Of a DNA stretch of 64,000 nucleotides, positions 5,663 to 48,275 are shown in pieces. Under the pieces are notes generated by a model. The model did not search any database. It was not told where the DNA came from and saw nothing but the letters and a program-made list of their open reading frames with translations. Location of the stretch: contig JAKLDQ010000001.1 of the NCBI GenBank assembly GCA_022703425.1, positions 36,243-100,242 on the forward strand, given 5' to 3'. Source of the stretch: Patescibacteria group bacterium. GTDB taxonomy: Bacteria > Patescibacteriota > Minisyncoccia > Minisyncoccales > Staskawiczbacteraceae. The translations under genes were made by a program, and so were the position numbers. Numbering within the stretch: position 1 is the first letter of the stretch; every line of letters starts with the position of its first letter.

Positions 5663-6193
5663 ATGGAAATAGACGATAAAAAAATAAACGAATTTATAAA
5701 AAAAGTAAACGAAAGCAAACAGGAAAAAATGGACCTGTCCTCTGACGAAGATCTTTCAATTGCAATAATGAATCTTATTTCCATCGAAGAACATTTTTTC
5801 TTTACTGCGGAAAAAACCGGAAAATCGGAGTATTTTGATTTGTTGAACGCTGCGCGGGAAATGCGGAAATCTCTTCTCAAGAAGATAATCAAGGACTATG
5901 AAGGCGAAGTCTGGTGCATCTCAAAACATCTTTTGGCAGCTTCGATGAGGCTTATGGAGGTTGGAACAAAAGCGCTGGGGCGGGGGAAAAAACAGGAAGC
6001 AGAAGATCTTTTTAAAAAAGCGTATGAACTTTATTCATTGTTCTGGGGGCTGAATCTGAAAATGGTAGATTTGGGGGACGTTAAAAAAATAGAAGAAAAC
6101 CAGATTTCAAAAAAAGACGACGACAAAAAAACAGGCATAATGGGAAAGCTTGGAAAAATGGTACAGTATGTTATAGACTGTTGCAGGGAATAA
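5663..6193 (+). CDS. hypothetical protein
   Basis: 176-aa ORF; no recognisable motif. Confidence 0.45.
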   Translation: MEIDDKKINEFIKKVNESKQEKMDLSSDEDLSIAIMNLISIEEHFFFTAEKTGKSEYFDLLNAAREMRKSLLKKIIKDYEGEVWCISKHLLAASMRLMEVGTKALGRGKKQEAEDLFKKAYELYSLFWGLNLKMVDLGDVKKIEENQISKKDDDKKTGIMGKLGKMVQYVIDCCRE

Positions 6194-6294
6194 TTTAGAT
6201 TTGAACGGCTCAGGCGGTCATACACCGTATGAGCCGTTTTTGTTTGCAAAAAATTATTGTATAATTAAGCAAATACTAAATTATTTTTTCAAAT

Positions 6295-7086
6295 ATGTTC
6301 GGATTAAACAAAACAACTCCAAAGTTTTGCGAATTAAAGGGAAAAGTAGCAATCGTTACGGGGGCAGCCAAAGGAATGGGAAAAGCCGATGCAATAAAAT
6401 TTGCAAATGCAGGCGCAAAAGTTGTCCTTGCAGATATTTCCCAGCAGGAATGCGAATCTGTTGCCACAGAAATTAAGAAGATGCGCGGAGAAGCGATAGC
6501 AGTAAAATGCGATGTGAGTAAGAAAGCAGATGTTGATACGGTCGTTTCAGAAGCAATTAAAAAATTCGGCAAAATTGATATTCTGGTGAACAATGCGGGA
6601 ATTTTTCCGTTCGAACCCTTTCTGCAAATGCCCGAACAAAACTTTGAAAAAGTCATCGACGTAAACCTTAAAGGAAGCTTTTTGATGGCCCAGGCATGCG
6701 CAAATGAAATGGCAAAGCAGAAATCCGGATCAATCATAAATATTACATCAATTGCGATGGGGCAGGTTGGCATGGGATTTGCCGGCCTTTCCCATTATTG
6801 CGCATCAAAAGGCGGAATGGTGGGAATGTCTGAAGCTATGGCTCTGGAGCTTGCTCCCTTGGGAATACGTGTAAACTGTATTGCCCCCGGAGCCATTGAT
6901 ACGCCCGGCGCTTCTTCAACAAGATTGGATGTAAAGCAAATGGAGGCGATGCTTGCTCCTATTCCGATGAAAAGAAAAGGGAGCGCAGAAGAAGTCGCAA
7001 ACGCAGTGCTTTTTCTTGCCTCAGACGAGTCATCTTATATGACCGGATCTGTGATGATTGTGGACGGTGGCTGGTGCGCAAATTAA
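6295..7086 (+). CDS. SDR-family oxidoreductase (FabG-like)
   Basis: VAIVTGAAKGMG Rossmann motif; NNAG; YxxxK (YCASK). Confidence 0.85.
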   Translation: MFGLNKTTPKFCELKGKVAIVTGAAKGMGKADAIKFANAGAKVVLADISQQECESVATEIKKMRGEAIAVKCDVSKKADVDTVVSEAIKKFGKIDILVNNAGIFPFEPFLQMPEQNFEKVIDVNLKGSFLMAQACANEMAKQKSGSIINITSIAMGQVGMGFAGLSHYCASKGGMVGMSEAMALELAPLGIRVNCIAPGAIDTPGASSTRLDVKQMEAMLAPIPMKRKGSAEEVANAVLFLASDESSYMTGSVMIVDGGWCAN

Positions 7087-7212
7087 CAAAAAAGCTCAAA
7101 TTATGTTTGACAAGAGTTTTTGATGGTATAAAATAGTCGTAATACTGTGAATAACTCATTTTTGAACCAAACCAAGGTCGAAGAACTCTATTAATTTTCA
7201 AAATTCAAACTC

Positions 7213-7374
7213 ATGTCAACAGAAGCTTATTGCGTAAAATGCAAGGCCAAAAGAAATATGAAAGATGAGAAGGAAGTGGAAATGAACGGCAAAGGCGGAA
7301 AAAAGAGGGCAGCCATGACAGGTACTTGCGAAAAATGCGGAACAAAGATGTTCAAGATAATGGGACTGAAATAA
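7213..7374 (+). CDS. 53-aa zinc-ribbon small protein, absent from the ORF track (<60 aa)
   Basis: MSTEAYCVKCKAKR...TGTCEKCGTKMFKIMGLK; two CxxC pairs; TTGACA-16-TAAAAT-like promoter upstream; terminator immediately downstream. Confidence 0.55.
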   Translation: MSTEAYCVKCKAKRNMKDEKEVEMNGKGGKKRAAMTGTCEKCGTKMFKIMGLK

Positions 7375-7380
7375 TATAAA

Positions 7381-7405
7381 GCCGCCTGAACTGAGGCGGC
7401 TTTTG
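7381..7405 (+). terminator. rho-independent terminator
   Basis: GCCGCCTGAACTGAGGCGGC hairpin followed by TTTTG. Confidence 0.6.
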
Positions 7406-8311
7406 CGTATGAAAAAAATTCCGGCAACAATCTGTATTGCCCTTTTTGCTCTTAATTTTTTTGCCTGGCAGGAAGTATTTTATCTGCAAAGGCCGAAACT
7501 GCTGGAGGTTGTTTTCTTTGATGTTGGGCAGGGTGATTCGGCACTTATAAAAACTCCGGAAGGACGCCAGATTTTAATCGACGGGGGGCCGGATTCGTCT
7601 GTTTTGGAAAAGCTTTCACAGGAAATGCCTTTTGCAGACAGAACAATCGACGCAATAATTCTGACGCATCCCGAAAAAGACCATTTTACCGGATTTCTGG
7701 ATGTTCTTGAAAGATATGATGTGCAGTATGTTTTCTGGACAGGGACAAGGAGCGACAATGCAGAATATAAAAAATGGACAGAGGCGGTTGAAAATGAGAA
7801 GAAAAATATCTGGCTTGCCGGAGGAAAAAAAGAAAATACAAAAATTTTTGAAATAAAAAAGGGCGCAAACATCAGGGCGGGAAATGTTCTGATTGAAACT
7901 CTTTCTCCGGAAGAGAGCTTCAGTGGTGTTAAAATGAAAAATTCAAGCAATGATTCAGGAATTGTTTCTCTTCTGAAATACGGTGAAGTTTCATTTCTGT
8001 TTACAGGGGATATTGCTCAAAAAACAGAAAGCCGGCTTGCCAATTCTTACGGATTGGCAAATGCCTTTGGAATGGATATTGATGTTTTGAAAGTTGCCCA
8101 TCACGGCTCAAAGTATTCAACTTCGGAATTTTTTCTACAAAACACAAAACCGGAATTTGCCGTGATATCAGTCGGGAAAAATTCGTATGGCCATCCGACT
8201 CCTGAGGTTTTGCAAAGACTGGAAAAATTTGGTATAAAGGTTTTGAGAACAGACCGCGATGGAGATGTAAAATTTCTATCTGACGGGAAAAATTTAACAG
8301 TAAAAAAATAA
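7403..8311 (+). CDS. metallo-beta-lactamase-fold protein related to the ComEC C-terminal domain
   Basis: signal/TM; VVFFDVGQGDSALI; HPEKDHFTGF; VAHHGSKYS. Confidence 0.75.
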   Translation: MRMKKIPATICIALFALNFFAWQEVFYLQRPKLLEVVFFDVGQGDSALIKTPEGRQILIDGGPDSSVLEKLSQEMPFADRTIDAIILTHPEKDHFTGFLDVLERYDVQYVFWTGTRSDNAEYKKWTEAVENEKKNIWLAGGKKENTKIFEIKKGANIRAGNVLIETLSPEESFSGVKMKNSSNDSGIVSLLKYGEVSFLFTGDIAQKTESRLANSYGLANAFGMDIDVLKVAHHGSKYSTSEFFLQNTKPEFAVISVGKNSYGHPTPEVLQRLEKFGIKVLRTDRDGDVKFLSDGKNLTVKK

Positions 8312-8315
8312 TTTT

Positions 8316-9386
8316 ATGAAAGACTTAGACTTTCCGATATTTAAAACAAAAAGTGCTTCATATAAAAAATTTGACCTTACCGATGTAAAACATAGGCAGG
8401 AGTATTTTGAATATAAAGCCGGTGATGAAATTAAAAGAATGAGGGAATTTTTGAAAGAAAACACATTTATTGCCTACCTCATGGGGAAAAAATCTTCCGG
8501 AAAAGGAACGTATGCAAAAATGCTTGCAGAGATCATTGATAAAGACGGGATTGCTCATTTTTCCATTGGAGACATGATACGATCCTTTGATGAAACTGTC
8601 AGGGATCCCGAAAAAAGAAAAGAACTGGAAGAATTTTTGAAGAAAAATTACAGGGGATACCATTCGCTCGACAAAATAGTACAGTCTCTGCAGGAAAGAT
8701 CAACGAAAACATTGCTGCCATCAGAATTAATTCTGGCTTTGGCAAAAAGAGAAATTGCAAAGCTTGGCAGGAAAGCAATTTTTATTGACGGTTTTCCGCG
8801 CGACTTGGATCAAGTTTCGTATTCGCTGTTTTTCCGCGACCTTATCGGATATAGGGAAGATCCTGACGTGTTTATTTTAATTGATGTTCCCACAACAGTG
8901 ATTGATGAAAGGGTAAAAACAAGAGTTATCTGCCCGCTGTGCCAAACGTCAAGAAGCACAAAGCTTCTTCCAACAAAGAATGTTGAGTATGAAAAAGAGA
9001 CGGGCAAATTCCATTTAATATGTGACAATTCGTCCTGCAAGGGCGCAAGGATGGTAATGAAAGAAGGCGATGAGCACGGAATTGCCCCGATAAAAGAAAG
9101 GCTGGATAAAGACGAACTCCTGATTAAGGAGGCATATAATTTGCAGGGAATTCCAAAAGTGCTTTTGAGAAATACAATCCCGGTTGAAAAAACGGGGGAG
9201 TTTGCCGACGATTATGAAATTACTCCGGAATTTTCATACTCATACGACGAAAAGAGCGGTAAAGTTGAAATTTCGGAAAAGCCGTGGGAGGTAAAAGACG
9301 ATGAGGGAATGTCTTCAAACAGTCTGATGCCGCCTCCGGTTGTCGTATCTCTTATCAAACAGCTTGTGGAGGTTTTGGGCATTTAA
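8316..9386 (+). CDS. adenylate-kinase-family NMP kinase paralog with zinc lid and ~130-aa C-terminal extension
   Basis: P-loop GKKSSGKGTYAK; lid CPLC...CDNSSC; canonical adk is elsewhere at 42759. Confidence 0.6.
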   Translation: MKDLDFPIFKTKSASYKKFDLTDVKHRQEYFEYKAGDEIKRMREFLKENTFIAYLMGKKSSGKGTYAKMLAEIIDKDGIAHFSIGDMIRSFDETVRDPEKRKELEEFLKKNYRGYHSLDKIVQSLQERSTKTLLPSELILALAKREIAKLGRKAIFIDGFPRDLDQVSYSLFFRDLIGYREDPDVFILIDVPTTVIDERVKTRVICPLCQTSRSTKLLPTKNVEYEKETGKFHLICDNSSCKGARMVMKEGDEHGIAPIKERLDKDELLIKEAYNLQGIPKVLLRNTIPVEKTGEFADDYEITPEFSYSYDEKSGKVEISEKPWEVKDDEGMSSNSLMPPPVVVSLIKQLVEVLGI

Positions 9387-24014: not shown

Positions 24015-24085
24015 TCGGGATATTGGGATTTGAACCCAAACTAAATCCACCCCATGGACTCGTGCTACCGTTACACTATATCCCG
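24015..24085 (-). tRNA. tRNA-Pro, anticodon GGG; no encoded CCA
   Basis: hand-folded cloverleaf: acceptor CGGGATA/TATCCCG; U8; D-loop with GG; anticodon loop AUGGGGU; T-arm TTGGG-TTCAAAT-CCCAA; C1-G72 and A73 typical of tRNA-Pro. Confidence 0.75.
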
Positions 24086-28310: not shown

Positions 28311-28630
28311 GCCGAACGGCTCACTCCGCCAGGGCACCAGTGCAATATTAGGAATCAGATTTAGAATACAAAAAATGAGCTGATTTCAAGACGCAGCGAG
28401 GAGGTTGTGCAAAGTGTTTGCACATCGACGAAGCTGTAACGACGAAATCAGCCATTTTTTGTATTCCCTTCGGGGCGGGCCAATTACAGCAATCTTCTGC
28501 GTTGCTCGTCGCGAACGATGCATTTCTCGCTGCATCAGTTCGCTTCCTCGCGCCTTGAAATATTGCTGTAATTGGCTCCGCTAAATTGATTCTAATATTG
28601 TACTGGCGCCCTAGGAGCCGTTCGGGTTTT
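28311..28630. repeat. ~320-bp nested-palindrome element: ~45-bp imperfect terminal inverted repeats enclosing two internal ~100-nt hairpin arms; MITE-like or structured RNA
   Basis: CCGAACGGCTCACTCCGCCAGGGCACCAGTGCAATATTAG versus CTAATATTGTACTGGCGCCCTAGGAGCCGTTCGG; inner pairs GAATACAAAAAATGAGCTGATTTC/GAAATCAGCCATTTTTTGTATTC and GGGCCAATTACAGCAAT/ATTGCTGTAATTGGCTCC. Confidence 0.5.
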
Positions 28631-28639
28631 GTAAAAAAA

Positions 28640-28671
28640 GAGCCCCGTAGTATACCTATGGGGCAAAAAGT
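28640..28671 (-). terminator. rho-independent terminator of the minus-strand DUF4177 operon
   Basis: minus-strand GCCCC-13nt-GGGGC followed by TCTTTTTTT. Confidence 0.6.
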
Positions 28672-28704
28672 CTTTGTCTTGCGACTCAGATACATATATT
28701 TACT

Positions 28705-29010
28705 TTACTCCTGACCGGAATATTCCTCGCCGGGAGCCAAAGCTTGGTAATTCTTCCAGAGATCCCTCCGCATCTCCTCAGGGGAGGGAAGTTCTGATAA
28801 AGATTCCTCCGCTTCCTCAATCAGAGTGTGTCCGACGGAGGATGGTGTTTGCACTGCGGACGGATCGGGAACTTCGCGAATCAAGACGTAAACGAGCTCA
28901 CTTCTTGAAATGGTGACTTTCCATCCGTTCTTTTCATCTTTGCCTAATATCTTCCGGGAAATTTCCGGAGGCGTATCGATTGGCAGACGAATCTCTTTTG
29001 TTTCTTTCAC
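28705..29010 (-). CDS. DUF4177-like paralog 4 (partial similarity)
   Basis: GWKVTISRSELVYVLIREVPDPS shares the GW...IxEREVP(E/D) signature with the three upstream paralogs. Confidence 0.45.
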   Translation of the reverse strand: MKETKEIRLPIDTPPEISRKILGKDEKNGWKVTISRSELVYVLIREVPDPSAVQTPSSVGHTLIEEAEESLSELPSPEEMRRDLWKNYQALAPGEEYSGQE

Positions 29011-29112
29011 CGCGTTCTCCTTTCTTCGCCCGCCGTAGCTTTAGCGAAGGCGCGCTTTGACCAAAGTAGCTTGCGAAGGCGGGTTTTGTTGAGTTTGTCG
29101 GACCCGATGAGA

Positions 29113-29697
29113 CTATTCAAAGCCTCCGGGTTTTAGCTCCGAAAGCTGTCCAAGGGTCATCTCTCTTGTTTTGCTGTTCGGATTTACCTCCACTTTTCCC
29201 GGAGTTCTTTCAAAGTGTTCTCTGGGAATATCCCGGACAACAATTTCCTCGTCGGGCGGACGATCAAATTCGGGGATAGGTCCCCAAAATCTCTGGTCTC
29301 CTAATACTGGAAACCACCTGTTGCAACCAATTAAGAGATATTGTCCGCGTACCACTTTTACAATTTCTATTTCAGGTTCCTCTCCAATTTCTGTGAAATA
29401 ATATCCGTTGTCTGGACTTGTAGCCCTTTCAAGATTCGCCCAAACGGACTCCGGCTGTTCAATCCGGAATTTTCCGTCGTCACCGATAACTCTGCGCTCG
29501 ACAACCGTTTCGGGTGCGGGCGTTTTCGTTTCTGGAACTTCGCGCTCCATTAGAATAAATGAATCGTTGTAGAGAAACGAGCAGAGGGGTGGCACTATGC
29601 GCCATCCTTCCTTTGCCGCTGAATTCAGCTCTTTTGCCCAGTCATCGCTATCTGGACTGCCAAACGGCCGCAAGATTTTGTATTCTACCTTACTCAT
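29113..29697 (-). CDS. DUF4177-like domain protein with ~130-aa C-terminal extension (paralog 3)
   Basis: VEYKILRP...WAKELNSAAKEGWRIV...FILMEREVPETK; AAGGAG RBS. Confidence 0.55.
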   Translation of the reverse strand: MSKVEYKILRPFGSPDSDDWAKELNSAAKEGWRIVPPLCSFLYNDSFILMEREVPETKTPAPETVVERRVIGDDGKFRIEQPESVWANLERATSPDNGYYFTEIGEEPEIEIVKVVRGQYLLIGCNRWFPVLGDQRFWGPIPEFDRPPDEEIVVRDIPREHFERTPGKVEVNPNSKTREMTLGQLSELKPGGFE

Positions 29698-29720
29698 TGC
29701 AATCTCCTTTTTTTTATAGA

Positions 29721-30041
29721 TTAAAGCGGCCTTAGGCCAGAGTGCATTTGCCGGAAATGATCATCCAGATCACCCGGAAAACGCTTCTCGCAAAGCTGAC
29801 AATACATCTCGTATTCTGGCGAAGCCAGTTCCGGTAAGGCCGTTTCGGGAACCTCGCGCTCGAGAGTTGCAATATAAGCGAGAGTTGTCCCAGTTTCTCG
29901 AACCTTCGCTCCGGGAAAAACAGCTGAAAAAATAACCTTGTAGCCATTATTTGCCAATACATTCAGCGCTTTTTCGAACGATGTCGCGCCTTCTTCGGCT
30001 ACGCACTTGTATTCGTATCTTTTCATTGGGTTCTCCTTCAC
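29721..30041 (-). CDS. DUF4177-like domain protein with C-terminal C2H2-like zinc-finger motif (paralog 2)
   Basis: YEYKCV...FEKALNVLANNGYKVI...ATLEREVPETA; CQLCEKRFPGDLDDHFRQMH. Confidence 0.55.
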   Translation of the reverse strand: MKENPMKRYEYKCVAEEGATSFEKALNVLANNGYKVIFSAVFPGAKVRETGTTLAYIATLEREVPETALPELASPEYEMYCQLCEKRFPGDLDDHFRQMHSGLRPL

Positions 30042-30253
30042 ATTCCTGTGTCACAACCAGCAAACGCGTCGTGAGGTGTTGCGCCTTTCGGACGCTTGAA
30101 AACGAAGACGGTGACGTTCGGAGTGTGGCTGGTAATTGAGCGAAGTTCTGAAGAGGTTGTTAGCTCCCAGCCTTGCTCTCCAAACTTGTCGAGTTCTTTC
30201 TCAAGATCTTCCTGATCGTAAGTAAGTCGTTGACACATGTACTCCCACCTCAT
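30038..30253 (-). CDS. DUF4177-like small protein (paralog 1)
   Basis: MRWEYMCQRL...LEKELDKFGEQGWELTTSS...VFVFKRP matches the canonical DUF4177 pattern (WEYK...EELEkkLNeLGeeGWELV...FKRP). Confidence 0.6.
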   Translation of the reverse strand: MRWEYMCQRLTYDQEDLEKELDKFGEQGWELTTSSELRSITSHTPNVTVFVFKRPKGATPHDAFAGCDTGM

Positions 30254-42758: not shown

Positions 42759-43460
42759 ATGTCAAAGCAAGTTGTAATTTTATTCGGCCAGCCCGGGGCA
42801 GGAAAGGGAACGCAGGCAGAAATATTGGCAGACAAAACGGGATTCTATCATTTTGAATCCAGCAAAGTTATTGAGGCAAGCTTTGTCGAGTTTCCCCCCG
42901 AAAAGACTTTTGAAATTGAAGGCCAGACCTATAAAATAGAGGACGAAAAGAAAAGATGGGAAGCCGGATTGCTTAACAGTCCGCCTTTCGTTGTCTATTT
43001 GATGACCGAAAAAATAAAGGAGCTTGCCGACATGGGCAAATCCATTATTTTTTCCGGTTCTCCTAGAACTCTTTACGAGGCAGAAAGGGAAATCCCGCTC
43101 TTGAAGGAATTATACGGAGCAGAAAACATAAGATTTGTAATGCTCGAAATATCAGCCGAAACTACAATTTTCAGAAACTCAAACAGAAGAATTTGCGAAT
43201 TAATAAGGCATTCAATTCTTTTTAATAAGGAAACCGAGCAGTTGTCAGAATGCCCGCTTGACGGATCAAAACTTGTAAGAAGGAAAAAGCTTGATGATCC
43301 TGAAACAATAAAAACAAGACTGGAGATTTATAAAGAACAAACCTTTCCTGTCTCTCAATTTATTGAGAAAGAGGGCTTGCCCGTTCATAAAGTAAATGGC
43401 GAGCAGACAGTCGCGGAAGTTTTTGCAGACGTATTAAAGGCAGTAGAATCAAAGCAGTAA
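42759..43460 (+). CDS. adk: adenylate kinase
   Basis: LFGQPGAGKGTQA; Zn lid C...CPLDG. Confidence 0.85.
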   Translation: MSKQVVILFGQPGAGKGTQAEILADKTGFYHFESSKVIEASFVEFPPEKTFEIEGQTYKIEDEKKRWEAGLLNSPPFVVYLMTEKIKELADMGKSIIFSGSPRTLYEAEREIPLLKELYGAENIRFVMLEISAETTIFRNSNRRICELIRHSILFNKETEQLSECPLDGSKLVRRKKLDDPETIKTRLEIYKEQTFPVSQFIEKEGLPVHKVNGEQTVAEVFADVLKAVESKQ

Positions 43461-44267: not shown

Positions 44268-45002
44268 ATGAAACCATTAATCGCAGGAAACTGGAAGATG
44301 AATCCAAACAGCGCAAAAGAGGCAAAAGAGCTGTTTGATGAAATTAAAAAAGGAATAAAAACGGCAAAATCGGAAGTGGTTGTTTGTCCGCCGTTTGTTT
44401 ATCTTTCCCAGCTGAACGGACTTTCTTTGGGGGCGCAAAACGATTTTTACGAAGAAAAAGGGGCTTATACCGGAGAAATCTCTGCATCAATGCTGAAGGA
44501 TTTGGACATAGATTATGTAATTCTGGGCCATTCAGAGCGCAGAAAATATTTTAACGAGACAGACGAACAGATAAACAAAAAAATAAAAAAATCTCTAGGG
44601 CAGGGGCTTAAAATAATTTTTTGCATAGGCGAAACAGCAGAGGAGAGAGATGCGCAGAAAAAATCAGAGGTTCTGGAAAAACAGATTAAAGAGGGGCTGA
44701 AAGGCGTAACGCGGGAAGAAATGAAAAGCATAAATATTGCGTATGAGCCTGTTTGGGCAATCGGCACCGGAAATAATTGCTCGGTTGATGAAACAATGAG
44801 TTCAGTGCTTTTTATCAGAAAAACAATATCTGATTTGTATAACAGGGAAATTGCAGACAACACAAGAATTCTTTACGGAGGAAGTGTGAAAAAAGATAAT
44901 TCCGGTTCATACATTAAGGATGCCGGCGCAAACGGATTGCTCGTCGGAGGCGCCTCGTTGAATGCAGATGATTTTGTTGAAATTGTAAAATCGGCAGAAT
45001 GA
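44268..45002 (+). CDS. tpiA: triosephosphate isomerase
   Basis: AGNWKMN; AYEPVWAIGTG; GGASL. Confidence 0.9.
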   Translation: MKPLIAGNWKMNPNSAKEAKELFDEIKKGIKTAKSEVVVCPPFVYLSQLNGLSLGAQNDFYEEKGAYTGEISASMLKDLDIDYVILGHSERRKYFNETDEQINKKIKKSLGQGLKIIFCIGETAEERDAQKKSEVLEKQIKEGLKGVTREEMKSINIAYEPVWAIGTGNNCSVDETMSSVLFIRKTISDLYNREIADNTRILYGGSVKKDNSGSYIKDAGANGLLVGGASLNADDFVEIVKSAE

Positions 45003-45068
45003 CAGAATATCGGAATGTCAGAAATTGCGGGAATTGACTTGTTTTGCTGTTTTATGTAGTGTAAAAAT

Positions 45069-45605
45069 ATGAACGATGACATCATAAATAACGGAAGCTT
45101 CTTCAGCCCCAGCAAGGGCGATATTAGTTTTGAAGAGGTGATTGGCGAGATTTATAACTACATTTCCGAGAAACCGGAATTTTTTTATGATATTGTTGTC
45201 GGATGTGATTCGCCCTCATCAGACAAGCCGTTTTTTCCGATTGCAATTGTTGTTTTGAGAACGGGAGCCGGCGGGAGATTTTTTCTTAAAAAAATGCGTT
45301 ATCCGGATAATTTTCTGAAAAAATTCGCCCACGTGCCTACAAATTGGAAGAGCAGGATATTAAACGAGGTTTATTTGTCCTGCGAGCTTGCTCTTTCTTT
45401 GCGCGAAACTCTTGAAAAAGAATTCGGTAAGGCTTCGCCAAATTTTAATTATCAGTTTCAGTACATTCACGCAGATGTCGGTGAAGTCGGCAAGACAAAA
45501 GAGATGGTCAGGGAAGTGGTGGGACTGATAAGGAGCAGCGGATTCGAACCGATTATAAAACCGTTGTCGTTTGCAGCATCAGTCGTTGCAGACAGGTATA
45601 CATAG
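45069..45605 (+). CDS. hypothetical protein, possibly DUF458/YkuK-like RNase H fold
   Basis: 178-aa ORF; weak resemblance only (DIVVGCDS ... AIVVLRTGAGGRFF). Confidence 0.4.
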   Translation: MNDDIINNGSFFSPSKGDISFEEVIGEIYNYISEKPEFFYDIVVGCDSPSSDKPFFPIAIVVLRTGAGGRFFLKKMRYPDNFLKKFAHVPTNWKSRILNEVYLSCELALSLRETLEKEFGKASPNFNYQFQYIHADVGEVGKTKEMVREVVGLIRSSGFEPIIKPLSFAASVVADRYT

Positions 45606-45676
45606 CTGGTTGTCTGGTTTTTCTGGGTATTTTTGACCGCCGGGGGCGGTTTTTGTATGGAATTTTTTGCTTTTTT

Positions 45677-45704
45677 GAACGGCTCACTTCGAAGTGAGCC
45701 GTTC
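45677..45704. repeat. hairpin GAACGGCTCACTTCGAAGTGAGCCGTTC, one member of a dispersed AACGGCTCA...TGAGCCGTT palindromic motif
   Basis: same stem sequence recurs at 46416-46446 and in the outer arms of the 28311-28630 element. Confidence 0.5.
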
Positions 45705-45716
45705 ATGGAAAGGGGT

Positions 45717-45744
45717 TTGACATATTTATTTTGTTTTGTATAAT
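45717..45744 (+). promoter_or_regulatory. consensus sigma70 promoter TTGACA-16-TATAAT at the head of the GC-rich noncoding region
   Basis: read directly. Confidence 0.5.
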
Positions 45745-45751
45745 AAAAAAT

Positions 45752-46387
45752 ATTAAAATCCCTTGATGGCTTAATGCATGTGCGACAGAGTCCGATTCTG
45801 TACTGGGGGACGCAATCCGTCCACAATGAGCTGAAAAGCACATCCCTCCAAAAGAAGTGCAATTCTGGCCCCAGTGGTCTGCCTTCGGCGTCCGTTTACG
45901 GGATTTGACGGGCAGGCAGGCGATAACCGCGCAGGAAAAACAGTTGCATCGGCCAAGCGCACGACGGTGCACGCGTGCAGACTTCGGCGTTTTTCCCTTT
46001 AAGCCATCATTTTGCTCTTTGAAAATAAGTTCGGATAAAAAAGCGTGTTATGGCGACAACTCCGGAAACGGAGCAGTTGGGTCCGATTCCCAAACGCTTG
46101 GTTGTGTGGAAACTGATTTTGTTGTGCTGCGTAGGTGGGAGACATTGAAGCACGGGCGCCAGCTTGTGCAGAGTCGCTAAAGCGACACCACCCTCTTAAT
46201 CGGTTTTCATATTGCCTCCGAACTTATATAAACTTCTTCGTCGCGAGGGCGCGTTGCCGTTGCGTGGTGGCCAGGTGGGCCGTGGAGGGGTGGGAACAGC
46301 CATGTTCAAACCGTCGGTTCGACTCCGACAAAACTTGGCCAGGGCCGTCAGAATTTTCAAGGGGTCTTGATCTGACGGCCTCTTTTA
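45752..46387 (+). ncRNA. candidate structured ncRNA transcript (~60% GC), identity unresolved; tmRNA-like, RNase P-like and SRP-like features all present
   Basis: bounded by a consensus promoter and the 46343-46387 terminator; no credible ORF; tRNA-like T-arm GTCGG-TTCGACT-CCGAC then ...CTTGG-CCA at 46313-46341; GGAUUUGACGGG box at 45901; UCCGGAAACGGAGCAG (GNRA-capped helix) at 46069. Confidence 0.45.
46343..46387 (+). terminator. rho-independent terminator
   Basis: GGCCGTCAGA...TCTGACGGCC followed by TCTTTTA. Confidence 0.65.
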
Positions 46388-46415
46388 TTACATTTTTGTA
46401 ACACCGTCTTTTTCC

Positions 46416-46446
46416 AACGGCTCAACGTGAGTTGAGCCGTTTTTGT
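46416..46446 (+). terminator. second hairpin terminator (REP-like motif copy)
   Basis: CAACGGCTCAACGTGAGTTGAGCCGTT followed by TTTG. Confidence 0.55.
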
Positions 46447-46496
46447 ATACGAAGGCGATTCTTGCCGTGCAAAAAAATTTAATGTAGAATACAGTA

Positions 46497-48275
46497 ATGA
46501 ATTCCTCCGAATTAAGGACAAAATTTTTAAATTTTTTCAAGAGCAAAGGGCACGCAGTTATTCCTTCAGCTTCTTTGATTCCGGAAAACGATCCTACCGT
46601 TTTGTTTACTACCGCCGGAATGCATCCCTTGGTGCCTTATCTGCTCGGACAAAAACACCCTGAAGGAACAAGGTTAACTGATGCGCAAAAATGCATTAGA
46701 ACAGGTGATATTGAAGATGTGGGTGATGATACGCACCTTACTTTTTTTGAGATGCTCGGAAACTGGTCGTTGGGCGACTATTGGAAAGAAGATGCGATAA
46801 AATGGAGCTTTGAATTTTTGACAGAAGAACTTAAGGTTCCACTGGACCGCCTGGCAGTTTCATGTTTTTCCGGAGACGATGATGCGCCAAAAGACGAGGA
46901 ATCAGCAAAAATTTGGGAATCTTTGGGGATAAAAAAAGAAAGGATTGCTTTTCTTCCAAAAGAAGACAACTGGTGGGGGCCTGCCGGAAAGACCGGTCCG
47001 TGCGGTCCGGATACAGAGATGTTTTATTGGAAACTGAATGATGAGCCGGCTCCTGAAACTTTTGATCCAAAAAACAAGAACTGGGTTGAAATTTGGAACG
47101 ATGTTTTTATGCAGTATGTAAAAGATGAAAATGGAAAGTTTCTTCCGGCAGAACAAAAAAACGTTGATACAGGAATGGGACTGGAAAGGACAGTTGCAGT
47201 ATTAAACGGAAAAGAAAATGTTTACGAGACGGATGCATTTGATTTCATAATCAAAAAAATTGAAGAATTATCCGGAAAAAAATATAACGAAGACCCAAAG
47301 TCCTTCAGAATAGTTGCCGATCATTTGAAGGCGGCAACGTTTATTGTCGGAGATAATAAAGGAGTTGCTCCGAGTAATCTGGGGCAGGGATACATTGTCA
47401 GACGCTTGATAAGAAGAGCAATAAGATTCGGGGAAAAACTAGGAATTGGCCGAAAGAATTGGCTTGCAGATGTTGCTGAAATTATTGCCGGAAACTACAA
47501 AAGCGCCTATCCAGAAATTTTAAAAAACCTTGATTTTGTCAGATTTGAATTCTCCAAAGAAGAAGAGAAATTTGGCGCAACAATTGAAAGAGGAATTATA
47601 GAGACAACATCAGAAATTACTAGCATGGGTCATCTTACCGGGGATGCTGCATTTAGGTTATATGAGACGTATGGGATGCCACCTGAACTAAGTCAAGAAA
47701 TTGCTCGCGAAAAGAAATTTAAAATTTCTCGCAATTTTCATACAGAATACGGTATTGCCAAGGAAAAACACCAGGAATTATCGCGCACATCCTCTGCGGG
47801 AATGTTTAAGGGCGGACTTGCTGATGCATCAGAACAGACAACAAAATATCATACTGCAACACATTTGCTTCTTGCGGGATTGAGAAAAGTTTTGGGCGAT
47901 CACGTGACTCAGAAAGGAAGCAATATTACTGCTGAAAGAATAAGGTTTGACTTCGCGCATAAAGAGAAAATGACTTCTTCACAGATAAAAGATGTAGAAA
48001 ATTTTGTAAATGATATAATAAAGAAAGATTTGCCTGTCTATTGTGAAGAAATGACTCTTGAGAAAGCCCGTGAGCTTAACGCTATGGGAGTTTTTGAATC
48101 AAAATACGGCGAAAAGGTGAAAGTATACACAGTGGGAGAAGGAGATGATATTGCAAGCAGAGAAATTTGCGGAGGGCCTCATGTTGAAAGAACAGGAATA
48201 TTAGGACACTTTAAAATACAAAAGGAAGAAAGTTCTTCCTCCGGCGTAAGAAGAATCAAAGCGATACTCGAATAA
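46497..48275 (+). CDS. alaS: alanine--tRNA ligase, short 592-aa form lacking the C-terminal C-Ala/oligomerisation region
   Basis: FTTAGMHP; FFEMLGNWSLGDYWK; editing HxxxH (HTATHLL); CGGPHV. Confidence 0.85.
   Translation: MNSSELRTKFLNFFKSKGHAVIPSASLIPENDPTVLFTTAGMHPLVPYLLGQKHPEGTRLTDAQKCIRTGDIEDVGDDTHLTFFEMLGNWSLGDYWKEDAIKWSFEFLTEELKVPLDRLAVSCFSGDDDAPKDEESAKIWESLGIKKERIAFLPKEDNWWGPAGKTGPCGPDTEMFYWKLNDEPAPETFDPKNKNWVEIWNDVFMQYVKDENGKFLPAEQKNVDTGMGLERTVAVLNGKENVYETDAFDFIIKKIEELSGKKYNEDPKSFRIVADHLKAATFIVGDNKGVAPSNLGQGYIVRRLIRRAIRFGEKLGIGRKNWLADVAEIIAGNYKSAYPEILKNLDFVRFEFSKEEEKFGATIERGIIETTSEITSMGHLTGDAAFRLYETYGMPPELSQEIAREKKFKISRNFHTEYGIAKEKHQELSRTSSAGMFKGGLADASEQTTKYHTATHLLLAGLRKVLGDHVTQKGSNITAERIRFDFAHKEKMTSSQIKDVENFVNDIIKKDLPVYCEEMTLEKARELNAMGVFESKYGEKVKVYTVGEGDDIASREICGGPHVERTGILGHFKIQKEESSSSGVRRIKAILE

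Follow-up and report, generated by a model that had tools for sequence, protein, structure and literature searches.

What is encoded in the GC-rich segment directly upstream of alaS in this Patescibacteria genome? The initial annotation described it as a non-coding transcript of about 640 nt with a tRNA-like 3′ end, perhaps a tmRNA, an RNase P RNA or an SRP RNA, either one of these or two side by side. We analysed it within the window, that is, the whole stretch of 64,000 nucleotides to which all positions refer, and observed that its central part carries a copy of the L1 stalk of 23S rRNA.

Transcription unit, neighbourhood and coding potential

The description of the segment as a structured, promoter- and terminator-bounded transcript of the + strand, about 640 nt long and lacking a credible ORF, held up (Table 1). 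The promoter matches the sigma-70 consensus at every position of both boxes, which places the presumed transcription start around 45751, and with these signals the RNA would be expected to be expressed. Left and right copies of a 34-nt repeat enclose the promoter-RNA-terminator cassette. A pattern search for this repeat, with a short loop, recovered just these two sites. The use of the repeats as attachment sites was considered and weakened, because the same type of hairpin recurs as a terminator elsewhere in the window (6203-6238).

Table 1. Features of the locus, in window coordinates
Feature	Position	Strand	Description and basis
34-nt direct repeat, left copy	45670..45703	+	hairpin GAACGGCUCA...UGAGCCGUUC; repeat search
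Sigma-70-type promoter	45717..45744	+	TTGACA-16 nt-TATAAT; 12/12 consensus matches
Predicted primary transcript	45751..46390	+	~640 nt, 52% GC, without credible ORF
Domain 1	45764..46009	+	246 nt; perfect 11-bp helix 45764-45774/45999-46009
Domain 2	46025..46227	+	203 nt; perfect 11-bp helix 46025-46035/46217-46227; holds module X and the L1-stalk arm
Module X	46041..46099	+	small three-way junction; MFE and centroid folds
Copy of 23S rRNA L1 stalk (H76-H77-H78)	46108..46208	+	blastn, Rfam LSU, pair counts
Domain 3	46268..46341	+	9-bp closing stem 46268-46276/46333-46341; topology as module X
Intrinsic terminator	46343..46390	+	10-bp GC-rich stem 46343-46352/46371-46380, inner hairpin, then UCUUUUAUU
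34-nt repeat, right copy	46408..46447	+	second terminator hairpin 46416-46441, then UUUUUGU
alaS own promoter	46462..46490	+	TTGCCG-17-TAGAAT; ends 6 nt before alaS ATG at 46497

The GC content had been overestimated, at about 60% in a 38% background: 45751-46390 has 52.3% GC and the whole window 41.2%. The region is nonetheless the highest-GC 600-nt stretch of the 64 kb (52-53%, 3.4 sd above the mean). GC richness alone is no argument for an RNA, since the cargo of relatives at this site is GC-rich coding DNA. As annotated, alaS follows downstream. On its upstream side the RNA adjoins an RNaseH_like (PF04308) gene (45069-45605), with tpiA (44268-45002) one gene further on, and the locus sits within a ribosomal-protein gene neighbourhood. 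The promoter of alaS is so close to its start codon that the gene looks leaderless and outside the RNA unit; relatives without the RNA show an equivalent promoter-ATG arrangement.

In these relatives the same site holds small, unrelated, GC-rich protein-coding cargo, a different insert in each, and in one of them (L122) no insert at all. The locus is accessory: the RNA occupies a site whose cargo varies. Given such neighbours, and given ORFs of 107 and 88 aa in the region, it might likewise encode one or more small proteins. The relatives' genes are preceded by strong SD sequences. Here, however, the ORFs are short and overlapping and none combines an ATG with an SD; the two just named start with GTG, lack an SD and overlap one another, and the 88-aa frame runs across both the L1 stalk and a T-arm. 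Translations were searched against 5.8 and 1.8 billion proteins: the 88-aa ORF had no match, and an exhaustive search with the 107-aa ORF returned only long repetitive proteins. This agrees with the initial annotation, in which the four short ORFs were taken as fortuitous. Gene callers also left the region blank in the three further assemblies available for this strain. A protein-coding origin is therefore scarcely credible.

The RNA sequence in those three assemblies is identical except for one SNP, G45973A, which falls in a hairpin loop if the surrounding palindrome is taken to pair with itself, although the MFE fold gives these bases other partners. Contigs of the other assemblies break at 45756/45788 and 45065, probably from low coverage (~3x) and not from structural polymorphism.

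A three-domain fold with an L1-stalk arm and T-arm hairpins

The RNA is predicted to fold into three separately closed domains, and the whole transcript is more stable than expected (z=-3.7). An inverted-repeat search recovered three perfect long-range helices of 10-11 bp, which delimit the domains. Domains 1 and 2 reached z=-2.87 and z=-4.79 respectively, with 0/200 shuffles as stable in either case, and the fold of domain 3 taken alone was insignificant (z=-1.1 to -1.25).

The L1-stalk arm of domain 2 aligned with positions 2120-2221 of the Rfam LSU_rRNA_bacteria model at 41.3 bits (E=1e-11), below the family gathering score of 50. By blastn it showed 77% identity over 73 nt to the 23S gene of an annotated Paenibacillus rRNA operon (E=5.6e-10) and matched 23S genes of many phyla, including Bacillota, Actinomycetota and Pseudomonadota. 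The module core GGUGGGAG...ACCACCC is present with helices H76, H77 and H78. H77 (GGUGG/CCACC), the GA bulge, the base of H78 (GAC/GUC) and the 8-bp distal H78 are intact; accordingly, pair counts in the alignment gave standard pairs in the window sequence at all 16 consensus H77/H78 positions. The local Rfam LSU alignment covers exactly H76-H78, and its H76 pairs are compensatory. This copy, the one part of the RNA with a clear identity, had been overlooked in the initial annotation.

The similarity to rRNA stops at the base of H76 and does not enter H75 or H79. An apparent upstream extension by nhmmer into H74/H75 was discarded, having low posterior probabilities and not being colinear with the fold. 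Searching with the whole 23S by nhmmer gave nothing in the window beyond the stalk. Hence a 23S rRNA gene was rejected, only model positions 2120-2221 being matched.

Relative to the arm in 23S rRNA (H76-H78, E. coli 2093-2196), with which it shares sequence and secondary structure, the window copy thus lies outside any 23S gene, between flanks unrelated to H75/H79, and its two loops are substituted. Loop A reads UGCGUA instead of AGGAUA and loop B AAGCGACA instead of UUGRRAUA, the loop references in the alignment being two 23S sequences and viral stand-alone copies. Canonical T-loops at A and B are therefore not found in the window stalk, and loops A (2111-2119) and B (2162-2173) are its most diverged parts. 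In a real stalk these two loops form the platform for the tRNA elbow; their divergence suggests that the native function has probably been partly lost or changed.

Two small modules accompany the stalk, module X within the same domain and domain 3 downstream. Each has a closing stem and a G-rich linker reminiscent of a D-loop, then a single hairpin and a T-arm whose T-loop is canonical. In module X, a 6-bp stem and a G-containing linker are followed by a GAAA-capped hairpin (46060-46073) and a T-arm-like hairpin UGGG-UCCGAUU-CCCA (46078-46092), to which the tRNA model gave a local match of 10.3 bits (E=0.014). The corresponding T-arm of domain 3 is GUCGG-UUCGACU-CCGAC at 46313-46329, with a local match at 46312-46329 (9.2 bits, E=0.028). 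A T-loop hairpin of this kind is the element that forms the elbow of tRNA.

The tRNA-like 3′ end was thus correct as far as the T-arm is concerned. The rest was not confirmed: the covariance model, R1, built from 25 tRNAs and run with filters off, found two isolated T-arms and no acceptor, D or anticodon arm, and the CCA (46339-46341) is paired within the 9-bp stem of domain 3, directly before the terminator hairpin. Having no cloverleaf, the region was rejected as a tRNA. An alanine-type acceptor in domain 3 (C1-G72, A2-U71, G3-U70, G73, CCA) was also dropped because the 5-bp stem register that it needs is supported neither by the fold nor by the tRNA model.

Relation to known RNAs and to viral stalks

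The resemblances to tmRNA, RNase P RNA and SRP RNA rest on short motifs: a GGAUUUGACGGG box, a tmRNA-like T-loop GGUUCGACUCC and a GAAA-capped hairpin. The motifs quoted do exist (GGATTTGACGGG at 45901, ACGACGGTGCA at 45961, TCCGGAAACGGAGCAG at 46061, GTCGGTTCGACTCCGAC at 46313 and CTTGGCCA at 46334). The identities proposed on this basis were contradicted by model searches. In the RNA region every Rfam 15 family stays below its gathering score, and the only match of the whole window at that level is a tRNA-Pro at 24015-24085. At E<=10, searches of 45500-46600 gave only noise, the LSU match having been removed by the search filters, and domain 1 alone behaved similarly. Neither standard nor permuted tmRNA models matched; the same was true of the bacterial A/B RNase P models, with their CR-I to CR-V core, on the region or on domain 1, and of the 4.5S and large SRP models with domain IV. 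CUCCG-GAAA-CGGAG is a plain GNRA hairpin. ARAGORN called no tmRNA or tRNA at default, 90, 80 or 70%, except for overlapping junk calls at 70-80%, among them a 'permuted' one at 70%, which bypass the T-arm. No 7-bp acceptor with G3:U70 and free ACCA could be built, nor was a credible resume codon or tag present, and none of these families contains an L1 stalk such as occupies the centre of this RNA. A divergent member of one of them, or two such genes side by side, is therefore the least probable of all the readings that we weighed.

Modules X and D3, which neither ARAGORN nor Rfam detects, share the topology of the tRNA-like domain of tmRNA and of Y RNA (YrlA) modules, without a D stem. They differ from these in having no free CCA, no G3:U70 acceptor and no tag reading frame, and no SmpB or Ro60 gene was found among the neighbouring ORFs scanned. 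By its length of ~600 nt, its multi-domain fold, its GC content relative to the genome and its accessory or mobile setting, the RNA resembles OLE, GOLLD, ROOL, HEARO and raiA. None of these matched the RNA region at E<=10 in Rfam, and to our knowledge none has an rRNA-derived domain. GOLLD and ROOL are associated with tRNAs and phages (PMC12286853, PMC5737381). A stalk copy flanked by two tRNA-elbow-like modules is an arrangement for which there is no described family.

The L1 recognition motif is reproduced outside the ribosome in the L11/L1 operon mRNAs also. L1 binds its rRNA and mRNA targets via the same motif, and a 55-nt piece of the stalk, taken by itself, forms a 1:1 complex with L1 in vitro (PMC2175363). 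These operon sites measure ~36-50 nt and act in cis from the 5′ region of the ribosomal-protein mRNA that they regulate, whereas the window RNA carries a complete 100-nt stalk in a separate 600-nt transcript far from rplK/rplA; rplA was not found in the 64-kb window. With an RNaseH_like gene and alaS as neighbours, and terminators of its own, the RNA was rejected as a ribosomal-protein autoregulatory leader.

We searched for homologues of the whole RNA and found none in the alaS loci of 80 other species, at 13 loci of conserved gene order in the genomes closest by alaS (72-77% identity), in the metagenome pattern scan, in six viral-contig scans or in phage and plasmid collections, where blastn of the phage collection gave no match. 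There is thus no covariation support outside the stalk. The metagenome scan with a stalk plus T-loop pattern returned the RNA itself, one real 23S, four chance matches and a rumen phage family. Scans of viral contigs for a stalk combined with a T-loop, for module X, for a domain 1 box and for the D3 T-arm gave nothing, or chance matches in terminase genes.

Stand-alone L1 stalks do occur in viruses: in the rumen phage lineage (L091, L093, L095, L096, L101, L103, L105) and in a further viral contig, L104. They are independent of each other and cut at the same helix as the window copy. Two other viral 'stalks' (L102 and L117) were set aside as real 23S fragments or chimeras. Similarly to the window, the stand-alone copies are isolated H76-H78 arms inside several hundred nt of non-coding sequence, all with GAC/GUC at the base of H78; where H78 positions vary among them, pairing is always kept. 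There is no detectable similarity to the window RNA outside the stalk. In contrast to the window copy, those in viruses have retained canonical loops, AGGAUA and UUGAAAUA, with AGAAUA in place of AGGAUA and GUGGGAUA in place of UUGRRAUA in L104. The phage element, at 4597-5165 in L103, lies between two tRNA-Arg genes within a tRNA array, again unlike the window RNA. A tRNA follows the phage stalk by ~50 nt and a T-arm the window stalk by ~105 nt, a common 'stalk then T-loop' spacing that is partly imposed by the search pattern.

Presumed function and alternative explanations

According to L1-RNA crystal structures, ribosomal protein uL1 recognises H77 together with the GA bulge and the H78 base, in 23S and in autoregulatory mRNA alike. 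Their retention in the window stalk, taken with the in vitro behaviour of the 55-nt fragment, would make uL1 binding its most likely biochemical activity. We propose an accessory, independently transcribed, structured non-coding RNA of about 590-640 nt, an imitation of the L1 stalk that probably binds uL1, a reading to which we give about an even chance, its functional part being deduced from sequence. Its central domain would present a co-opted 100-nt stalk arm, with T-loop modules X and D3 on either side, to free uL1 in the manner of rRNA, and the two would form an RNP. Modules X and D3 may offer elbow-like surfaces, either folding back on the stalk or making intermolecular contacts. Downstream, the effect could be uL1 titration, altered ribosome composition or control of the L11 operon. 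Against this reading stand the want of homologues in the searches made, the diverged loops, the unremarkable stability of D3, and the loss of uL1 and H78 in some Patescibacteria classes (PMC12641178) together with the failure to find rplA in the window.

A wider version is unlikely, though worth stating: a hitherto undescribed kind of mobile RNA mimicking a ribosome part, built of an L1 stalk and T-loop modules and acting in trans on translation, would occur independently in a Patescibacteria cargo site and in phages. Such an RNA might capture uL1 or contacts of the type made by E-site tRNA; alternatively, docking of stalk and elbow might drive self-assembly, as in ROOL and GOLLD.

Alternatively, the copy may be a relic without function: foreign DNA of higher GC content, by chance including a fragment of a 23S gene, would have landed in a cargo hot spot, and its promoter, terminator and stems would do nothing at the RNA level. 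The RNA being an orphan in the searches made, the changing inserts of the relatives, the degenerate elbow-binding loops and a D3 no more stable than shuffles are all consistent with this. Yet the similarity ends exactly at the base of H76 and does not run on into H75/H79, the pairs of all three helices are intact, the 12/12 promoter is matched by a proper terminator, the domains are delimited by perfect helices with D1 and D2 beating 200/200 shuffles, and two unrelated viral lineages carry the same module cut at the same helix. We consider a relic rather unlikely on balance; were it true, all that remained would be a curious piece of rRNA at a hot spot for cargo.

Two other explanations assign the stalk a role in cis or in the ribosome itself. 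Interdigitated T-loops serve the L1 stalk, T-box Stem I and RNase P alike in recognising the tRNA elbow, and the RNA immediately precedes the co-oriented alaS, from which two terminators separate it, so that a T-box-like leader might be imagined in which the stalk platform holds a tRNA elbow and controls terminator read-through. Such a sensor is improbable: alaS has its own adjoining promoter, in RNA-less relatives too, no Rfam T-box matched at E<=10, at ~640 nt the RNA exceeds a T-box leader two- to threefold in length, the divergence falls in the loops that contact the elbow, and unrelated genes occupy the site in relatives. A T-box riboswitch was rejected accordingly. In the other explanation, the main 23S would have lost or shortened its stalk and the transcript would supply it in trans as a piece of a fragmented 23S. 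The ribosomal-protein gene neighbourhood fits this, as does the lineage-specific reduction or loss of H78/uL1 in Patescibacteria (PMC12641178). H76 is, however, closed by the RNA's own junction and 11-bp helix and thus leaves no free strands to pair with the 23S body, and relatives with the same gene order lack the RNA; we hold this possibility to be very improbable.

Mimicry of rRNA has so far been known only as short protein-binding sites in ribosomal-protein operon mRNAs. If the proposed uL1-binding mimic is real, it would extend to trans-acting, possibly mobile RNAs of 600 nt with a whole L1 stalk, and to analogous elements in phage tRNA arrays. Local LSU-rRNA matches below threshold in intergenic DNA would then not necessarily be pseudogene debris. 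Such an RNA would also open the biology of uL1 and the L1 stalk to direct study in Patescibacteria, where some classes have lost uL1 and H78, with H78 changing gradually within Paceibacteria (PMC12641178). The nearest named relatives of the host genome are Candidatus Staskawiczbacteria.

A bounded non-coding unit upstream of alaS

The feature at 45717-46390 is real: a unit of ~640 nt is delimited by a 12/12 promoter and by terminators, as the initial annotation had claimed, and every motif quoted there is present in the sequence. It is also GC-rich as then described, being the top 600-nt window of the 64 kb, although with 52.3% GC against 41.2% in the window rather than the ~60% and 38% first given. 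As to its neighbours, alaS was named correctly, whereas tpiA lies one gene further upstream, beyond the adjoining RNaseH_like gene.

Coordinates of the features discussed (window positions unless a contig is named)
Feature	Location	Description
RNaseH_like (PF04308) gene	45069-45605	immediate upstream neighbour of the RNA unit
Sigma-70 promoter	45717-45744	12/12 match
D1	45764-46009	perfect 11-bp closing helix; z=-2.9
D2	46025-46227	perfect 11-bp closing helix; z=-4.8
Module X	46041-46099	6-bp stem, G-containing linker, GAAA hairpin, T-arm-like hairpin
D3	46268-46341	9-bp closing helix; z about -1.2, not significant
Terminator hairpin	46343-46352/46371-46380	10-bp, GC-rich, then UCUUUUAUU
Second terminator	46416-46441	3' of the first terminator
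alaS	46497-48275	downstream neighbour of the RNA unit
Phage element, L091	5090-5642	
Phage element, L103	4597-5165	minus strand
Phage element, L105	261-790	minus strand
Phage element, L093, L095, L096, L101		
Insert, L081, L118		DksA/TraR zinc-finger gene
Insert, L082		two small ORFs
Insert, L084		minus-strand ORF
Insert, L106	804-2983	239-aa unknown gene, 840-nt gap without called gene, short reverse-transcriptase (RVT_1) ORF
Insert, L107		small basic ORFs and another promoter- and terminator-bounded non-coding unit
Insert, L119		response regulator
Insert, L120		121-aa ORF
Insert, L122		absent, nothing between the flanking genes

The ORFs of the region are short, overlap one another, have no SD and use GTG or TTG as start codons. 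The initial reading of these frames as lacking protein similarity holds: the 88-aa ORF had no relatives in the protein search and matches to the 107-aa ORF were restricted to repetitive proteins. Three other same-strain assemblies show no gene calls over the RNA region, and their RNA sequence is identical but for G45973A. Independent low-coverage same-strain contigs (L088, L089 and L090, from window 45756/45788 onward) have a break at the 5′ border of the RNA, and another (L124) ends at 45065, just 5′ of the RNaseH_like gene.

A tmRNA, RNase P RNA or SRP RNA with a tRNA-like 3′ end had been proposed. We observed no Rfam 15 family at gathering score in the RNA region and, at E<=10, no match to tmRNA, RNase P, SRP, T-box, OLE, GOLLD, ROOL or HEARO. 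Similarly, ARAGORN found neither tRNA nor tmRNA in the RNA, relaxed thresholds giving only mutually overlapping junk calls. Run with filters off, a tRNA covariance model based on 25 tRNAs found no cloverleaf and matched only two isolated T-arm hairpins, one with 10.3 bits (46078-46092) and the other with 9.2 bits (46312-46329). In the fold, the CCA (46339-46341) is base-paired as part of a 9-bp stem, with the terminator directly 3′. The proposed identifications are wrong, and both these families and a coding gene are unlikely as the nature of the RNA.

An L1-stalk arm within a predicted three-domain fold

Comparison of the RNA with a plasmid collection by blastn gave a 33-46-nt core matched in records from many unrelated phyla, the longest matches spanning 46132-46177. 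One match that we fetched sits inside a 23S rRNA gene according to Rfam, with 77% identity to the RNA over 73 nt (E=5.6e-10). The LSU_rRNA_bacteria model aligned its positions 2120-2221, the complete L1 stalk (H76-H77-H78), to 46108-46208 with 41.3 bits and E=1e-11, on a short stretch where Rfam filters are laxer. In this alignment H76 is maintained by compensatory pairs, and alignment with two 23S and viral copies showed all 16 consensus pairs of H77 and H78 to be standard. Judged from these alignments, 46108-46208 is certainly an L1-stalk copy. The similarity stops at the base of H76: Rfam gave no rRNA similarity in D1, and a whole 23S searched against the window had no match besides the stalk. 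A split-23S piece is likewise unlikely.

In the ribosome, loops A and B are the platform stacking on the tRNA elbow. These loops differ in the window stalk, with UGCGUA vs AGGAUA for loop A and AAGCGACA vs UUGRRAUA for loop B in the other aligned copies. H77, the GA bulge and the H78 base, which from L1-RNA structures we take to be the uL1 recognition motif, are retained.

The MFE and centroid folds concur in dividing the RNA into three domains, each with its own closing helix. Module X and the stalk arm, in this order, make up D2. The topology of module X recurs in D3 (stem, G-rich linker, hairpin, canonical T-arm), and therefore the stalk would be flanked by two elbow-like modules, X and D3, in single-sequence folds without covariation support. 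The T-loop/D-loop elbow of tRNA is the natural ligand of the stalk in the ribosome.

Stand-alone stalks in viral contigs

A single metagenome scan for a stalk combined with a T-loop recovered, besides the strain of the window, one genuine 23S, four chance matches and five contigs of one rumen phage lineage, to which two IMG/VR contigs of ~105 kb also belong. Within a tRNA array of this lineage, tRNA-Arg(tct) and tRNA-Arg(acg) flank a conserved non-coding element of ~420-480 nt. An isolated stalk (LSU positions 2131-2210, 61 bits) is its sole Rfam match, and it also holds the motif GGAA(A)CGUACAGCA, repeated twice. In L104, a separate 78.6-kb IMG/VR viral contig, an isolated stalk (6405-6492) lies in ~1.6 kb without substantial same-strand ORF (5960-7580, minus strand); of the isolated stalks, this one resembles the window copy most (nhmmer 29.9 bits). 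Outside the stalk, no similarity of these elements to the window RNA was detectable, and the shared order of stalk then T-loop is partly imposed by the search pattern. These copies do show that the H76-H78 arm has left its rRNA context more than once, at the same helix boundary.

Several further features were seen in these contigs. The 'tRNA-Arg(acg)' of L091 (5553-5642), with equivalents in L093, L095, L096 and L101, measures 89-90 nt and has a long variable arm. Its score on the tRNA model is sub-threshold, but the tRNA-Sec model gives it 39 bits, with an acceptor-like fold of 9 bp; at its position, L103 and L105 carry a normal tRNA-Arg(acg) of 76 nt. On the 3′ side of the L104 stalk are a hairpin resembling a terminator and a solitary T-arm (6105-6121), the latter possibly an attP-type tRNA 3′ fragment. 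A metagenomic 23S 3′ part (L098, 1-1119) spans 1417 positions of the LSU model although it is just 1119 nt long, has two T-arm-like sequences, GGTTCGATTCCGG and GGGTTCGAATCCCC, within ~130-200 nt after its L1 stalk, and could be a reduced or interrupted 23S.

A variable insertion site and the nature of the RNA

The window belongs to a Patescibacteria bacterium, whose alaS protein has its closest named counterparts in Candidatus Staskawiczbacteria (72-77% identity). Relatives conserve the order adk-map-tpiA-(RNaseH_like)-[insert]-alaS-GlxA-infA-rpsM, with a different insert each time, and none of the inserts of L081, L082, L084, L106, L107, L118, L119 and L120 resembles the window RNA. That of L106 is possibly an RT-based system, of retron-like or other type. 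The non-coding unit of L107 (2057-2770, ~680 nt), in the same hot spot, has its own TTGACA...TATAAT promoter and a terminator and holds two copies of UGAUUCUCCCC-hairpin-AUAAGCAAGAAUCA.

In the window and all these relatives alaS keeps its own promoter immediately 5′ of the ATG; hence the RNA forms a separate, accessory unit and is unlikely to be an alaS leader. The gene appears leaderless or nearly so, its -10 box ending 1-9 nt before the ATG without SD (window 46462-46497, also L081, L082 and L084).

Of the readings considered, the one with the best support is an accessory structured ncRNA with a central arm that mimics the L1 stalk and probably binds uL1 in its free form. L1 binds isolated fragments of the stalk stoichiometrically; its domain I recognizes a motif invariant between rRNA and mRNA targets, and the protein uses this same motif on the mRNAs through which it regulates (PMC2175363). 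Within Patescibacteria both uL1 and H78 are variable (PMC12641178), which bears on the predicted binding. The predicted binding, or the stalk itself, might result in uL1 titration, altered ribosome composition, a decoy role or self-assembly driven by stalk-elbow contacts. The main rival, a remnant of foreign DNA that includes a piece of rRNA, would suit an orphan RNA in a hot spot, but has to face an rRNA similarity ending exactly at a helix boundary, intact stalk helices, a consensus promoter with terminator, and stable D1 and D2 folds. The cassette lies between direct repeats of 34 nt that each form a hairpin; to this we attach little weight, since a hairpin of this type also serves as a terminator at another site in the window. 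As an L1-stalk mimic, the RNA would be a new form of rRNA mimicry; its content is unexpected but rests on one sequence. A wider reading, in which it belongs to a novel class of ribosome-part mimics that act in trans and also occur in phages, we consider rather improbable.

The recurrent hairpin, GAACGGCUCA...UGAGCCGUU(UUUGU), is used as a terminator at 6203-6238, 45676-45705 and 46414-46441, the latter two within the 34-nt repeat. Between fusA and tuf, ~1.9 kb of 46-52% GC (28350-30250) carries only minus-strand ORFs, two of which (115 and 194 aa) were scanned and had no Pfam match; this block looks like a second cargo insertion, in the str operon neighbourhood. The window also has two adenylate-kinase-family genes, at 42759-43460 and 8316-9386, the second being unusually long (356 aa).
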